Virus record (IMG/VR): IMGVR_UViG_2703719369_000026
DNA length: 14,832 nt
Direction: 5' to 3' (one strand)
From: a virus
Taxonomy: Duplodnaviria; Heunggongvirae; Uroviricota; Caudoviricetes
In this document: positions 1 through 10,926 of the stretch, in pieces
Layout of the letters: each line of letters begins with the position of its first letter
Position numbering within the stretch: position 1 is the stretch's first letter
The notes under the pieces: generated by a model
Databases searched by the model: none
Seen by the model: only the letters and a program-made list of their open reading frames with translations
What the model was told of the DNA's origin: nothing
Translations under genes and position numbers: made by a program

Positions 1-1002
1 TTACCCTCTATTGTCAAAAGGGTTCAATTCAACAGCAGCCTCTAAATGACCTGGAGCAAAATGCGCATAACGCATAGTCATTTTTATATCGCTATGCCCC
101 AGTATTTTTTGCAACACAAGAATATTTCCACCCCGCATCATAAAATGACTGGCAAACGTGTGACGTAGCACATGAGTTAATTGCCCATCAGGAAGCTCGA
201 TCTTCGCTCTCTTAATTGCAGCGTCAAAAGCCTCATAACATGGTGAAAATAGCGCTCCTCGTTTTTTAGGAAGCATAGCTTGCAATTGAGGTGAAATCGG
301 TACAGTGCGGTTCTTCTTTCCTTTAGTTTTAACAAATGTGATTCGACCGGGCAGTACTTGAGATTGCTTTAATCCTTCTGCTTCACTCCACCGAGCACCA
401 GTCGCAAGCCCAATACGGACAACAACCCCCAAATCTTTATTCCGTGACTCATCACACGCAATCAGAAGGCGTTCAATCTCATCTACATACAGAAACGCCA
501 GTTCCTTTTCTTCCTCACGAAACTTGCGAATACCAGTCAGGGGGTTTTCACCAGACCACTCCCCAAGGCGCTTCAGTTCGGCAAAAACAGCATGTAGATA
601 TGACTGCTCGCGATTAACGGTTGCTTCACTAAGTTTTTTCTTCCCCTTGGGATTCCATTCTCCTGATAGCCTTCTTTCCCGATAAGTAGCAAACATATTT
701 TTGTCAAACTGAGAAGCAAATGGATCTCCCAGCCTGGAACAAATCGCCTCAAGTTTGACTTTGCGCTCTGCACCAGAGGACAAGGTTTTACCGTACATCT
801 CAAACCAACGAGCAATCAACTCAGAAAGACGAGGACCAGAACCATCTTGAAACTCGTCTCCAACTCTACTATTCATTAAACGGCGCTCATAAGAGAGCGC
901 CTCACTTTTTGTCGCAAACTGTTTACGAATGCGTTTTCCCGATGCCCCGTAGGGATAACATTCACAAAGCCATTTACCTGATGGAATCTTACGAACCGAC
1001 AT
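1..1002 (-). CDS. int: Tyrosine-type site-specific integrase (phage integrase family)
   Basis: Complete 333-aa ORF with the stop at window positions 1-3. The C-terminal catalytic region carries the tyrosine-recombinase signature (HVLRHTFASH ... LGHSDIKMTMRYAHF, i.e. the R/H/R/Y residues). Its ATG lies 5 nt downstream of the preceding gene's stop on the same strand, so it is probably co-transcribed. Confidence 0.9.
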   Translation of the reverse strand: MSVRKIPSGKWLCECYPYGASGKRIRKQFATKSEALSYERRLMNSRVGDEFQDGSGPRLSELIARWFEMYGKTLSSGAERKVKLEAICSRLGDPFASQFDKNMFATYRERRLSGEWNPKGKKKLSEATVNREQSYLHAVFAELKRLGEWSGENPLTGIRKFREEEKELAFLYVDEIERLLIACDESRNKDLGVVVRIGLATGARWSEAEGLKQSQVLPGRITFVKTKGKKNRTVPISPQLQAMLPKKRGALFSPCYEAFDAAIKRAKIELPDGQLTHVLRHTFASHFMMRGGNILVLQKILGHSDIKMTMRYAHFAPGHLEAAVELNPFDNRG

Positions 1003-1007
1003 TTTAG

Positions 1008-1355
1008 TTACTTATCACATAAATCAAATGCAGCCTTAGTGACATCCCCCAGACTCTTTTTTAACCCTGGGGCGGCATCATTATCTAGCCAAAATGGATT
1101 ATTGTTATCTAACGGTAACGCACCAAATGTTTTACCTTTTATTCGAGCCAAACCTGTAAGTGCATATAACTTATTATCGTCAAAATTCATCACATAAGGA
1201 TTACCATCAAGACACTGTAATTGAACCTCATCAGTATTAAATGGCCATACCCCATTGAAACTCTCACGTTCAATAGTTTTAAAAGGCATTGCGACGGCGG
1301 AAAAAGAAAACATAGATAAAAAAGTAACTAATAGTTGAACCTTTTTTACTTTCAT
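1008..1355 (-). CDS. Small secreted/periplasmic protein, possibly DUF2511/YebY-like
   Basis: 115 aa with a typical N-terminal signal peptide (MKVKKVQLLVTFLSMFSFSAVA) and two cysteines (QCLDG ... DLCDK) that could form a disulfide. GAGGT ribosome-binding site about 9 nt upstream. The family assignment is from memory of the YebY pattern and is not verified. Confidence 0.55.
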   Translation of the reverse strand: MKVKKVQLLVTFLSMFSFSAVAMPFKTIERESFNGVWPFNTDEVQLQCLDGNPYVMNFDDNKLYALTGLARIKGKTFGALPLDNNNPFWLDNDAAPGLKKSLGDVTKAAFDLCDK

Positions 1356-1384: not shown

Positions 1385-2035
1385 TTACAAATTAAAAAAC
1401 GCCCTAGAAATGACACCGCCTACCAAAACCCCTACGCAGATAAAGAATATTATTTCTTTTGGATAAAGTCGGATTAATTCTGAAGCACGAAGTCGGACTT
1501 CTGGTAAGGTCGAACTCTCTATGTGGCTTGATGCCGATTGTTGCTCTAACCACGACAATGCAGACTGTAACTGAGAACGAGTAAGATCGTTTAAACGTCC
1601 TGTACCGAAATTGATATGGCAATACCGCAGAAGTTTTTGTCGAAGTCCACAGTCTTCACTGTTACGTAGTAATAAACTTACAAGAGCCTTACAGGCATCA
1701 TGATCTTTACATCGCTCAAGCATTGCATGCAGAAAACTCTCCGCTGTTTTATATTGATTTACTGTCATATCATCAATACCAGCTACACCAATCTCCGCAT
1801 GTACTTTTTGCCAAATAATAAACGCTTCAGTATTGCTAGCTTCTGCAATAGCAGCAACCAAGCTATTTAGCTCCTTACGCTGAGCCTTAAGCAAAGGGCG
1901 ATCGTCATCATCATTATTCGAAGGGATTGCGATATTGACGGTATGAGAACCATCATATCGCTCTATCTGAATATTCTTTTCGTGAAAATCACGCCCAGCA
2001 ACGCGATTGTTTGAACCGTTTGAGTTGACGGCCAT
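1385..2035 (-). CDS. Hypothetical tail-anchored membrane protein (single C-terminal TM helix)
   Basis: 216 aa. The soluble N-terminal part includes a poly-Asp stretch (NNDDDDR), and the extreme C-terminus is about 20 hydrophobic residues (IIFFICVGVLVGGVISRAFF). Strong GGGAGGTG ribosome-binding site immediately upstream. The N-terminus repeats a motif found at the C-terminus of the upstream HTH protein. Confidence 0.6.
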   Translation of the reverse strand: MAVNSNGSNNRVAGRDFHEKNIQIERYDGSHTVNIAIPSNNDDDDRPLLKAQRKELNSLVAAIAEASNTEAFIIWQKVHAEIGVAGIDDMTVNQYKTAESFLHAMLERCKDHDACKALVSLLLRNSEDCGLRQKLLRYCHINFGTGRLNDLTRSQLQSALSWLEQQSASSHIESSTLPEVRLRASELIRLYPKEIIFFICVGVLVGGVISRAFFNL

Positions 2036-2050
2036 GTCACCTCCCTACTA

Positions 2051-2455
2051 TCACCTACCCTTAGTTTCGTTATAGTCACGACCAGCGATACGGTTATTAC
2101 CACCAGAAATATTTAACTCACGTCCTGATGGCTGAGTTTCCTTTTCACTGATCGCACCTTTTAAAGCCCCAATCACCGCGTTTTTCACATCTAACGAAGC
2201 TGCTCGAAAGCGAGTAATCAATTCCTGCTCATCATCGTTATAAGTTTCAGGTGAGTGAATTCCCAACACAACATACTGAACATCAAGGCCAAAACGAGAC
2301 AGCGCTGCCAAATACGCAGCATCAGGAAAGCTATCTCCTTTCTCATATCTAAGCTGAGTTAGCTTTTTGACTCCACCAATGTCGCTCATGGCAACTTGAC
2401 TAAGTCCCAATCTTTCCCTTTCCTCACGCAACCGCCGACCAATATCATTTTTCAT
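2051..2455 (-). CDS. XRE-family (Cro/CI-type) helix-turn-helix transcriptional regulator, candidate immunity repressor
   Basis: 134 aa. The N-terminal 65 residues fit the HTH_XRE pattern (IGRRLREERERLGLSQVAMSDIGGVKKLTQLRYEKG). It is first in the leftward operon and transcribed divergently from the rightward early genes, matching the position of P2 C or 186 cI. Confidence 0.8.
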   Translation of the reverse strand: MKNDIGRRLREERERLGLSQVAMSDIGGVKKLTQLRYEKGDSFPDAAYLAALSRFGLDVQYVVLGIHSPETYNDDEQELITRFRAASLDVKNAVIGALKGAISEKETQPSGRELNISGGNNRIAGRDYNETKGR

Positions 2456-2464
2456 ACAAAAACC

Positions 2465-2488
2465 TTGACAGGTATCTTTTTTGATACC
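2465..2488. promoter_or_regulatory. Candidate operator/promoter: TTGACA hexamer followed by a perfect inverted repeat GGTATC-TTTTTT-GATACC
   Basis: Read directly from the sequence: TTGACA at 2465-2470, GGTATC at 2471-2476, a T6 spacer, GATACC at 2483-2488. It lies in the 75-bp divergent region between the XRE repressor gene and the rightward genes. The -10 element and strand assignment are not resolved. Confidence 0.4.
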
Positions 2489-2530
2489 AAAATGATTTCA
2501 CGAGCTATTAGATGATCACAATATACCACT

Positions 2531-2737
2531 ATGAAACAAGTTCTTCACGATACCAGATCACGCATTCCGCGTAACACCGCCACAGGTCCAAGACTGGCAC
2601 TTCGGCTGTCCCTCGAGGAGCGAGCCGTCATTGATGAAATGGCAGCTAAAGAACAACGCTCATCCTCTAACATGGCGCGCATGATCTCCCTTCGCGGCCT
2701 AGAGCTAACCCAGAAAGAACAAAACAAATCTTCCTGA
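2531..2737 (+). CDS. Putative ribbon-helix-helix DNA-binding protein
   Basis: 68 aa with an RHH-like beta-strand plus two helices (RLALRLSLEERAVIDEMAAKEQRSSSNMARMI). No clear Shine-Dalgarno sequence, so it may be leaderless or weakly translated. Confidence 0.4.
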   Translation: MKQVLHDTRSRIPRNTATGPRLALRLSLEERAVIDEMAAKEQRSSSNMARMISLRGLELTQKEQNKSS

Positions 2738-2753
2738 TCAGGAGGCTAGTGGG

Positions 2754-2957
2754 ATGTCAGGTATAACCATCAATATCAATGTGAATGCCCCCTATGTATC
2801 CCTGCAGAAATATGCAGAGATAACAGGTATCCCTCTTAATACATGCAAAAAGATGTTGGCTGACGGTCGAATTATTATCCGCCCCAAACGCGCCAAAATG
2901 GAAAAGCCTGAAGTAAACCTTGTGGCGATGTTAAAAGACGCTTTGGCTAACAGCTAA
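2754..2957 (+). CDS. Putative Cox/Apl/Xis-like small HTH protein (excisionase or early regulator)
   Basis: 67 aa. AGGAGG ribosome-binding site 8 nt upstream. The motif YVSLQKYAEITGIPLNTCKKMLADGRI resembles the excisionase-type HTH. Its position, first clear rightward gene opposite the repressor, matches cox/apl. Confidence 0.5.
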   Translation: MSGITININVNAPYVSLQKYAEITGIPLNTCKKMLADGRIIIRPKRAKMEKPEVNLVAMLKDALANS

Positions 2958-2978
2958 AACAATGAACAGAGCACCATC

Positions 2979-3329
2979 ATGAAAAAAAACGCTAATAATC
3001 CATACTCCAAATTTCGTAATGGCGTAGAACGCCATGTACACCACGTCGCTACCAGTGCATCACGTAGTAACAGTCGCTATAACCTGAACGAGACGCATGC
3101 AACACCGGATGGCCACGCTGTAAAACAAATCGGCGAACATGCCTGGCTGATTGAGAAAGCTGGAATCGTGGTCCACAAATGCCCACGCAATCCGTTTACC
3201 GGGAACCGCATTTTTGCATTGAACTGCGGCGACAATCACTTCGGGCAGGATTTCACATTATACGAAGCACTTCGCACGGTTGATCGTCTGCTTCGCGGGC
3301 AAAGTTTTATTAAACAGGCTGATTTATAA
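2979..3329 (+). CDS. Hypothetical early-region protein
   Basis: 116-aa ORF in the rightward gene chain; no recognisable domain. Confidence 0.45.
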   Translation: MKKNANNPYSKFRNGVERHVHHVATSASRSNSRYNLNETHATPDGHAVKQIGEHAWLIEKAGIVVHKCPRNPFTGNRIFALNCGDNHFGQDFTLYEALRTVDRLLRGQSFIKQADL

Positions 3330-3339
3330 CAGGTGCTTT

Positions 3340-3618
3340 ATGACCAAAGAGCATGCACAAGGTGTATTTATCCGTTTTATTGATTTTCGCGGTGAACTGT
3401 TATTACGCGCATCAGCCATTGACGGAATTGTTCCATCCGAAAAAAACGCAGCTACTTACGTTTATCTGAACGGTACGCGCCTGACTGTGGAGCTTCCGTA
3501 CCAGACCGTACGAGAAATCATTAGCGAAGCTGAAAAGGCTCGTCAGGTTAATGGCGATGAACCCTATATCGAAATTATTTGTATGGATTCAGAAGCTGAA
3601 ATTCAGAAAGCAGATTAA
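3340..3618 (+). CDS. Hypothetical protein
   Basis: 92 aa starting at the ATG at 3340, which has an AGGTG ribosome-binding site. The longer 3280 start in the ORF track would overlap the previous gene by about 50 nt. Confidence 0.5.
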   Translation: MTKEHAQGVFIRFIDFRGELLLRASAIDGIVPSEKNAATYVYLNGTRLTVELPYQTVREIISEAEKARQVNGDEPYIEIICMDSEAEIQKAD

Positions 3619-5277: not shown

Positions 5278-5399
5278 GAAACCAGAACATGCACACACAA
5301 AAAAACCGCTTGCCATGCCGCAATCGGTCAGGTTACATTTCCGCTGCACCTCATAAAACGGGTGCCGGGATTCTCAACCCGATACAGAGCAAAGCGCAT

Positions 5400-5420
5400 A
5401 ACCGCGCTAGCGGTTTTTTT
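5400..5420 (+). terminator. Candidate intrinsic terminator (hairpin plus T-run)
   Basis: AACCGC-GCTA-GCGGTT stem-loop at 5400-5415 followed by TTTTTTT through 5420. It lies about 125 nt downstream of the 4978-5277 gene. Confidence 0.45.
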
Positions 5421-5599
5421 GTGCGTACTGTATTGCCACGTCTTTTTCGCGTCAGAATTATGGCGGGGCGTACGGGGCCGACTTCGGTCGGGCCGGATTC
5501 TTTGCTCTCCGGTGTTGAGAACCCTGTACGTCTCGCCACCCCGAGATTCTCAACTCTGGATGGTGAGTTATTTCTATCACCGAGCAAAGAGGCCACACC

Positions 5600-5830
5600 A
5601 TGGCAGACCGCAAACAGCACCGCGCTATCGCGGAGCGTCGTCACATCCAGACTGAAATCAACCGCAGACTTTCCCGCGCATCACGCGTCGCGCAAATCAT
5701 GCACATCAATATGCTGCATGAGCGCAGCCACGCACTATCAAACATTTATTCCGCCTCTGTTTTCAGCTATCTGGCGGATGATCTGCACGAGTTTCAACAG
5801 CTCATCCAGCAGCAAAACAAACTCCATTAA
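5600..5830 (+). CDS. Hypothetical small basic protein
   Basis: 76 aa with an AAAGAGG ribosome-binding site 7 nt upstream. It is preferred over the overlapping 205-aa ORF at 5289..5906, which crosses the hairpin structures. Confidence 0.4.
   Translation: MADRKQHRAIAERRHIQTEINRRLSRASRVAQIMHINMLHERSHALSNIYSASVFSYLADDLHEFQQLIQQQNKLH

Positions 5831-10471: not shown

Positions 10472-10926
<455 letters not shown>

Follow-up and report, generated by a model that had tools for sequence, protein, structure and literature searches.

The 18-bp palindrome GGTATC-T6-GATACC at positions 2471-2488 of a viral DNA stretch of 14,832 nucleotides (IMG/VR record IMGVR_UViG_2703719369_000026; the whole stretch is referred to as the window) is very probably the sole operator bound by the immunity repressor of prophage Sp13/CP-933T, and it lies inside the early promoter (Pe). 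This reading is carried by the computed architecture of the site, its conservation, the symmetric covariation of its two arms, the link between the arms and the recognition helix of the repressor, and the exchange of helix and operator as a cassette. The window is prophage Sp13/CP-933T of Escherichia coli O157:H7, a P2-like remnant of the Xuanwuvirus type (Peduoviridae). Positions 1900-3400 matched many E. coli O157:H7 chromosomes at 100% identity, in a place beside yecA and tyrP, and Escherichia phage 520873 (Peduoviridae, Xuanwuvirus) at 95.5%. A prophage catalogue names the element Sp13 in strain Sakai and describes it as P2-like (PMC2669165). In strain EDL933 (CP008957) the repressor gene is EDL933_RS14115, and the genome coordinate equals the window coordinate plus 2,687,589.

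A first-pass annotation had placed the palindrome, with an abutting TTGACA, in a 75-bp region between the gene for a 134-aa helix-turn-helix (HTH) repressor and the rightward genes. The interval was found at 2456-2530, the HTH gene at 2051-2455 (minus strand), and both sequence elements exactly as claimed. The intergenic sequence, acaaaaaccTTGACAGGTATCTTTTTTGATACCAAAATgatttcacgagctattagatgatcacaatataccact, lies between the start codon of the repressor gene on the left (ATG, complement of 2453-2455) and that of a 68-aa open reading frame (ORF) on the right (ATG at 2531). The inverted repeat consists of the left arm GGTATC (2471-2476), a TTTTTT centre (2477-2482), and the right arm GATACC (2483-2488), the arms being perfectly complementary, and TTGACA (2465-2470) adjoins the left arm. 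A sigma-70 scan paired this TTGACA with CAAAAT (2488-2493) across a 17-bp spacer, with 10 of 12 consensus matches. The palindrome had been described as overlapping the -35 hexamer; it abuts that hexamer instead and overlaps the -10 by one base, its final C being the first base of CAAAAT. Because the palindrome fills the entire -35/-10 spacer of this rightward promoter, its first-order role would be repression of Pe. The elements of the predicted promoter are the following:

2465-2470, plus strand: Pe -35, TTGACA (promoter scan; CTTGAC invariant in eight enterobacterial relatives and TTGAC present in 35 of 43 distinct upstream regions)
2471-2488, no strand: putative operator of 18 bp with GGTATC/GATACC arms and a TTTTTT centre (sequence; conserved position and symmetric covariation; arms track the recognition helix)
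2488-2493, plus strand: Pe -10, CAAAAT, after the 17-bp spacer (promoter scan; CATAAT, CACAAT, CAGAAT, or CAAAAT at an equal offset in relatives)
2499-2501, plus strand: predicted Pe transcription start, the A at 2500 within CAC, 7 nt after the -10

The CAC at the predicted start was kept in five of eight aligned relatives and was replaced by tac or aac in the other three (the E. coli loci L085 and L083 and the Salmonella locus L087). Positions 2463-2470 appear to be used twice: the plus strand carries the Pe -35, and the minus strand reads GTCAAGG, the likely Shine-Dalgarno sequence of the repressor gene. By inspection of the sequence, AAGG, located 9 nt before the repressor ATG, is the sole Shine-Dalgarno-like element of that gene.

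When the window was examined by itself, no perfect copy of the palindrome occurred in any of 200 shuffled versions, and 0.24 sites with at most two mismatches were expected per window (first scan). Simple arithmetic gives a chance of about 1.4% for a 6+N+6 palindrome in 75 bp at one fixed spacing, rising to about 15% when spacings of 0-10 are allowed, and the promoter scan returned one promoter-like site against 1.9 expected from shuffled sequence. These figures would suit a functionless palindrome that happens to lie beside a fortuitous promoter-like match, since some such palindrome in 75 bp is not rare if any spacing will do, and promoter-like sites were as frequent in shuffled as in real sequence. 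The weight of the case rests, for that reason, on the comparison between loci. There, the place, size, and symmetry of the element were conserved across dozens of diverged loci and changes in the arms remained symmetric, so that coincidence is effectively refuted by the comparative data and retains next to no probability.

The search with the repressor yielded more than 200 homologues. The comparison set comprised 80 loci, one genome per species, together with loci fetched for individual proteins, all oriented as the window. A recurrent layout was observed in which TTGAC(A/T/G) is followed by a 6-nt arm, six A/T-rich nucleotides, the complementary arm, and then (C)A-AAT. It was present in Kosakonia, Buttiauxella, Hafnia, Yersinia, Klebsiella, Erwinia, Salmonella, and Pectobacterium, as well as in Gilliamella, Aeromonas, Pasteurellaceae, Bordetella, Halomonas, Cellvibrio, Jeongeupia, and several Pseudomonas, a range that extends from Enterobacterales to Burkholderiales. 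TTGAC lay within 60 nt of the repressor start codon in 35 of 43 distinct upstream regions; when the next 18 nt were read from this anchor, at least five of the six arm positions were complementary in 31 of the 35 distinct regions, and all six in 22. As a control, 49 of all 725 TTGAC sites of these loci reached at least five of six, a count that includes the operators themselves, unsubtracted, and was made on loci without deduplication. A Pseudomonas subgroup of homologues with the helix VEPNAQGKYES, which is devoid of the TTGAC-palindrome layout, was excluded from the statistics.

Within the arms, positions 1-3 were mostly GGT/ACC, and positions 4-6 were variable, changing on both arms together. 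The pairs encountered were GGTATC/GATACC, GGTATT/AATACC, GGTATA/TATACC, GGTACG/CGTACC, GGTAAC/GTTACC, GTTATC/GATAAC, GGTTCA/TGAACC, GTTCAA/TTGAAC, GGTGTG/CACACC, and AGTGCG/CGCACT. In register, 162 of 174 cells were complementary, compared with 30-50 of 174 when the partner arm was slid by 1-3 nt, a difference that is inflated by the way the sites were selected.

The repressor was modelled with AlphaFold on the basis of 33 homologues. The model featured five N-terminal helices (residues 4-16, 20-27, 31-39, 46-53, and 59-64) with a predicted local distance difference test score (pLDDT) of about 90 (above 90 over residues 11-60), two further helices (74-85 and 88-106), and a low-confidence tail (105-134). 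The recognition helix corresponded to residues 31-39, KLTQLRYEK; among the homologues, most of the variation in the generally conserved HTH fell in this helix. Comparison of the 33-homologue profile with the Protein Data Bank (PDB) gave the N-terminal domain of P22 C2 as the best match (7e-6) and C.Csp231I as the next, and in a fold search the best compact match, the C2-operator complex 3jxb, superposed with a target template modelling (TM) score of 0.81 (1.6 Å over 63 residues). As modelled, the protein is a five-helix HTH protein of the XRE/Cro-CI type. No S24 peptidase domain was detected in it by Pfam, PHROGs, or NCBIfam, and the Sp13 repressor has been described as having no peptidase motif (PMC2669165). 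Distant homologues were found in phiE202, phi52237, and RSA1 and in the Mu-like phages BcepMu, B3, and KS10. The tail (residues 105-134; window 2051-2140, minus strand) was predicted to be disordered, with a pLDDT below 50, yet it was conserved across the Enterobacterales homologues with the motif (I/V)SG..(N/H)R(I/V)AGRDY(N/H)E (core GNR(I/V)AGRDYNE); an antirepressor or a protease might dock there.

The arms followed the recognition helix. For pairs of loci with identical residues 30-34, the mean distance between half-sites was 0.54, versus 2.70 for pairs with different residues, and none of 5000 label permutations gave an association as good, although this statistic ignores shared ancestry. 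Residue 32 was associated with the half-site as follows: leucine with GGTAT-, glutamine with GGTAC-, tryptophan with GGTGTG, lysine with GG(T/G)AAC, threonine with (G)GTTCA(A), and arginine with AGTGC-. We used this rule to record five operator predictions before the corresponding loci were fetched. Four could be tested, and all four were correct: IRKQTQLK was accompanied by GGTACA-T6-CGTACC, VRKQTQLK by GGTACG-T6-CGTACC, VKKLTQLN by GGTATA-AATAAT-TATACC, and VKKLAQLR, from a Klebsiella aerogenes protein 65% identical to the Sp13 repressor, by GGTATC-TTTTTT-GATACC, which agrees with the window at 18 of 18 positions. The gene of the fifth protein lay in the interior of a tandem array and lacked its own switch region. 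Symmetric covariation, helix tracking, and the four blind predictions together lend strong support, at the level of sequence, to the core of the earlier proposal, in which the palindrome is bound directly by the repressor.

Two E. coli loci, L083 and L085, represent a natural swap. Their repressors share 97-100% identity over most of the C-terminal half and 93-100% over the half as a whole. The arc-like and cox-like genes that follow the switch region on the right are 93-100% identical, whereas the HTH-coding segment, the operator, and Pe are just 53-70% identical. L083 combines the helix IRKQTQLK with the operator GGTACG-T6-CGTACC, and L085 combines VKKLTQLR with GATATC-ATTTTT-GATACC. This contrast indicates that the operator travels with the DNA-binding domain of the repressor and not with the early proteins, and the HTH-coding segment, operator, and Pe seem, from these alignments, to behave as one exchangeable cassette. 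In the window itself, positions 2351-2499 showed the reverse of the L083/L085 pattern when compared with L085, with 77-90% identity across the cassette and 27-80% in the flanks.

The same loci bear on whether the palindrome might be bound by the Arc-like or the Cox-like early protein, for autoregulation of the early operon, rather than by the HTH repressor. Both are predicted DNA binders encoded just downstream of the palindrome; Arc-type proteins bind short symmetric sites, and P2 Cox autoregulates its early operon, which counts for this possibility. However, the arc-like and cox-like genes of L083 and L085 are virtually identical, and the arms differ nonetheless, following the repressor helix. 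A palindrome embedded likewise in the promoter was also present in loci of Gilliamella, Pseudomonas, Aeromonas, and Pasteurellaceae in which a gene other than an arc-like one comes first on the right, and what stays constant beside these two early genes is not the palindrome but the block at 2514-2533. We consider binding by an early protein as the explanation of the palindrome to be very improbable. Since the arms follow the recognition helix and not these genes, the suggestion that the palindrome is the determinant of immunity specificity is likewise supported by the sequence comparisons.

In the mechanism that we favour, a repressor dimer would contact each 6-bp arm through one of its two recognition helices (residues 31-39), the A/T-rich centre probably being uncontacted. 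Bound repressor would exclude RNA polymerase from Pe and so silence the arc-like, cox-like, and replication genes, and the operator would give immunity against phages with identical arms. Shutting off Pe would also relieve interference with repressor synthesis. Binding, the dimeric state, both transcription starts, and any autoregulation are what we infer here.

The geometry of the region also constrains the repressor promoter (Pc). TTGACA lies 10 bp from the repressor ATG, and on the minus strand none of the hexamers before this ATG (CAAGGT, AAGGTT, etc.) is -10-like, so that a PRM-like promoter, whether leaderless or back to back with Pe, was considered and discarded. With a gap of only 10 bp and no usable -10 before the ATG, Pc would have to lie to the right of Pe and face it. 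In the alignment of eight enterobacterial relatives, a block at 2514-2533 was invariant regardless of operator class, reading GATCACAATATA(C/T)CA(C/T)TATG, and it showed no covariation with either the operator or the repressor helix. Its minus strand reads TG(G/A)TATATT, an extended -10, and this extended -10 is probably that of Pc, as judged from its sequence:

2514-2533, no strand: conserved block GATCACAATATACCACTATG (alignment; it would hold the Pc -10, the arc-like start codon, and possibly a site for the arc-like/cox-like protein)
2520-2528, minus strand: predicted extended -10 of Pc, TGGTATATT, part of the invariant block

TGnTATATT was located 31-32 nt from the operator in most loci of the arc-like type, with the exception of locus L092, where the best match was CATAGT at 40 nt. 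Transcription from Pc would start near 2513 (minus strand) and from Pe near 2500 (plus strand), about 13 bp apart, which corresponds to 2,690,102 and 2,690,089 in EDL933, so that the polymerase footprints would overlap. The operator would then occupy approximately +26 to +43 of the repressor mRNA leader, not the repressor promoter, and autoregulation, if any, would be indirect through relief of interference or would act as a roadblock in the leader. The first-pass annotation had expected an autoregulated operator in a divergent region. The genes are indeed divergent; the palindrome, in contrast, would fall in the leader of the repressor transcript and outside its promoter.

This geometry also frames another reading, namely that the repeat folds into an RNA hairpin within the leader of the repressor mRNA, or forms a DNA cruciform, and so alters stability, translation, or termination with no protein recognising its sequence. 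With a Pc start near 2513 (minus strand) the leader would hold the repeat, and the minimum-energy fold includes it. The fold was nevertheless not significant (-9.8 kcal/mol, z = -1.67, with 15 of 200 shuffled sequences as good), mismatched positions showed no consistent G-U pattern on either strand, and a hairpin would need neither the conserved outer GG..CC nor the exact register with the -35 and -10. The arms, moreover, correlated with residues of the recognition helix, and predictions from the resulting rule held. We give this reading little credence.

Several points weigh against the repressor-operator interpretation. Compensatory changes in the arms keep their complementarity, as an RNA hairpin also would. 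The loci used for covariation are phylogenetically non-independent, the Pfam HTH matches of the repressor are below the curated cut-offs (HTH_31, 24.1 versus 27; HTH_19, 19.3 versus 30.2; HTH_3, 19.1 versus 23), and stable lysogenic switches do not usually depend on a lone operator that has no neighbours for cooperative binding. The Pc prediction holds just for the enterobacterial subgroup with an arc-like gene, a Pc-like extended -10 not being evident in the scan outside that subgroup. The invariance of the Pc block possibly has several overlapping reasons, as the block could also serve the arc-like/cox-like protein or the translation of the arc-like gene. In the literature, no binding, footprint, or transcription-start data were found for this repressor or its close homologues. 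The repressor-operator interpretation is nonetheless the one that we hold with considerable confidence.

The only site in the window with at most one mismatch to the operator was 2471-2488 itself, and no significant site was found elsewhere in it. Across the loci, additional sites matching a locus's own operator numbered 0.41 per locus, versus 0.16 in the cross-control, a mild enrichment, and a few distant relatives may have a second operator site. A candidate with two mismatches in the cox-like gene (GGTATCCCTCTTAATACA, 2826-2843) was rejected: one such site was observed against 0.48 expected, which is within chance; it encodes the conserved motif TGIP(L/F)(N/D)T and is a by-product of coding; and as a conserved site it fails by being lost in L085, of the same operator class as the window, and unchanged in L083, of another class. 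Weak binding of the repressor at 2826-2843 may still occur in Sp13 itself. The additional half-sites TATACC (2522-2527) and GATACC (2549-2554) persisted in relatives with operators of the GGTAC- or GGTGTG type; neither is therefore part of repressor recognition, TATACC being accounted for by the predicted Pc -10 block and GATACC by the codons for His-Asp-Thr in the arc-like gene.

Placing a palindromic operator within a promoter spacer is textbook biology, and the Sp13 region would combine the standard pairing of HTH dimer and palindromic operator with a P2/186-style convergent switch. For the repressor family itself, no experimental study was found in the literature, the search covering the repressor class and Xuanwuvirus switches. 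The Sp13 repressor shares with P22 C2 and 434 cI the predicted five-helix HTH fold, and its putative operator is likewise dyad-symmetric and overlaps the promoter that it would repress. The P22 operator is of similar size to the Sp13 site and, as proposed here, has an A/T-rich centre that is probably uncontacted. Unlike P22 C2, 434 cI, and lambda CI, which are SOS-cleavable and carry a C-terminal S24 peptidase domain with an Ala-Gly cleavage site, the Sp13 protein has two helices and a disordered tail in its model. Lambda-type switches also differ in having a cooperative OR1-3/OL1-3 array where Sp13 has a single operator, and in the back-to-back arrangement of PR and PRM, whereas the Sp13 promoters are predicted to be face to face.

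With the P2 C switch, the region shares the family Peduoviridae and the gene order int, repressor, switch, cox-like gene, replication genes. According to one study (PMC2995052), P2 C binds two non-palindromic direct repeats that flank the Pe -10; the Sp13 site is instead a perfect inverted repeat between -35 and -10, and Sp13 has an additional Arc-like gene before cox. Relationship in sequence to P2 C (99 aa) was not found among the PDB sequence matches, and its structure 2xcj ranked 48th by fold, a generic HTH match. The likeness to the 186 switch lies in the facing promoters and the inverted-repeat recognition at the lytic promoter, both predicted for Sp13. Face-to-face lytic and lysogenic promoters are described for P2 and 186 in three papers (PMC1904263, PMC3448106, PMC5001618), and 186 CI recognises inverted repeats at the lytic promoter, its repression relieving interference on the lysogenic one (PMC3675496, PMC5001618). 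PMC3675496 further describes 186 CI as a protein of 192 aa that forms a 14-mer wheel and uses several pR sites plus flanking sites. The Sp13 protein differs in being 134 aa long and unrelated, with one site, no conserved flanking site, and no cII-like gene; no 186 CI structure was among the PDB sequence or fold matches of the repressor. By these differences the protein falls outside both the P2 C and the 186 CI families, and the lack of a peptidase domain separates it from the SOS-cleavable repressors of the lambda type.

The controller proteins C.Csp231I, C.BclI, and C.AhdI are also small XRE-type HTH dimers that bind palindromic boxes inside a promoter, and C.Csp231I aligned with repressor residues 7-83, including a C-terminal helix (E = 1.8e-5). 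These boxes lie upstream of the controller gene itself and the endonuclease gene co-transcribed with it, and the controller both activates and represses that promoter. Sp13 differs in that the site is part of the immunity region of a prophage and is located in the promoter of the operon running the opposite way, and no restriction-modification gene was found among the neighbours of the repressor gene. RstR of CTXphi and DicA of Qin are, similarly, phage or prophage repressors encoded divergently from the genes they control. Over the HTH region, the NCBIfam scores were 26 bits for RstR (cut-off 80) and 24.5 bits for DicA (cut-off 101), so far below the family cut-offs that the repressor is a member of neither family.

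The genes around the switch and the features further to the right were assigned as follows:

1-1002, minus strand: integrase
1008-1355, minus strand: DUF2511 protein
1385-2035, minus strand: Flk_N-like protein of 216 aa (PF27202 in relatives; NCBIfam Flk at 8e-16, below the cut-off)
2051-2455, minus strand: predicted immunity repressor, HTH protein of 134 aa
2531-2737, plus strand: first early gene, 68-aa Arc-like ribbon-helix-helix protein (phrog_3431, 4e-27; annotated in phage 520873 and conserved in relatives)
2754-2957, plus strand: second early gene, 67-aa Cox-like excisionase/repressor (phrog_575, 1e-27)
5600-5830, plus strand: P4 epsilon-like 'derepression protein', 76 aa
6275-9097: gpA-like replication endonuclease

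To the right of the cox-like gene, DUF4761, DUF4754, and more small ORFs precede the epsilon-like gene, which is followed by the gpA-like gene. The Arc-like ORF (2531-2737, plus strand) is absent from the RefSeq annotations of O157:H7, where a 45-aa ORF on the opposite strand (2545-2682, WP_001673482.1) is called instead. The PHROG match, the annotation in phage 520873, and the conservation of the protein in Salmonella and other relatives favour the Arc-like gene, as far as sequence comparison can indicate. On the other side of the switch, the Flk_N-like gene directly follows the repressor gene in most relatives with listed genes, and is absent or non-adjacent in loci L095 and L094; this position suggests that the protein is probably expressed in the lysogen.

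Directly upstream of the epsilon-like gene (5600-5830), Rfam matches at the gathering level were obtained on the plus strand of the window for isrK (5346-5420, 63 bits) and for the C4 antisense RNA (5456-5543, 78.5 bits). The segments CTTTGCTCT (5500-5508) and GTTGAGAACCC (5514-5524) of the C4-like RNA are each complementary to two target sets, the first at 5368-5378 and 5386-5394 and the second at 5547-5560 and 5582-5590, the latter covering the ribosome-binding region of the epsilon-like gene. From its sequence, the region looks like the immI-type antisense control of the antirepressor in P1. A LexA box was looked for in the switch region and around the epsilon-like gene, and none was found. 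Mitomycin C induces Sp13 of O157 Sakai in spite of the missing peptidase motif in the Sp13 repressor, an unexplained observation (PMC2669165) on which the C4/epsilon-like arrangement may bear.

In a Salmonella enterica locus (AAZMUC010000003.1; L094, 568-2171), four tandem paralogous repressor genes were found in the lysogenic operon. Their recognition helices differ (STKTWG, KKWTQI, AFRTYC, and SREAWG), and their C-terminal part is shared. The junction TAATTAAAAAACGAAAGGAGGCGA(A/G)GTG joins genes 1 to 2 and 2 to 3, and the third junction differs. A switch region is present just at the first gene (TTGACA-TAGGAA-TTTTTC-TTCCCT), and the second repressor has the helix of the Salmonella repressor L087, whose operator is GGTGTG-T6-CACACC. 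The array may represent stacked immunities against heteroimmune relatives.

Taken jointly, the operators, the cassettes, and the epsilon-like/C4 region could belong to one scheme, which we put forward tentatively and regard as doubtful. At least 15 orthogonal repressor-operator pairs would be built on a fixed scaffold of -35, 6+6+6 operator, and -10, in which a few residues of the helix, chiefly residue 32, give bases 4-6 of the half-site a new specificity. Cassettes of about 150-180 bp, each comprising the HTH-coding segment and the operator, would move by recombination as units, stackable as in L094, and in Sp13 the switch would be opened by the P4 epsilon-like antirepressor and not by RecA cleavage, with the C4-type antisense RNA holding down translation of the antirepressor. 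If true, this opening would explain the mitomycin-C inducibility of Sp13, for which the operator assignment supplies a missing first component. A 2011 survey of P2-like regulatory regions gives the repressors of several members that have other switch types, including phiE202, phi52237, and RSA1, as unidentified (PMC3448106), and the Sp13 repressor family reaches these three distantly. The proposed operator and promoter map would offer a testable description of a third type of lysis-lysogeny switch in P2-like phages, besides P2 C and 186 CI, and the helix-to-half-site table could be used in designing orthogonal repressor-promoter pairs.

At 10751-10867 (minus strand), an ALIL pseudoknot (RF01497, 120 bits) was also detected, a structure that signals frameshifting in insertion sequences of the IS3 family. 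Its presence indicates that the prophage harbours an insertion sequence element, in keeping with accounts of Sp13 as P2-like and degraded.

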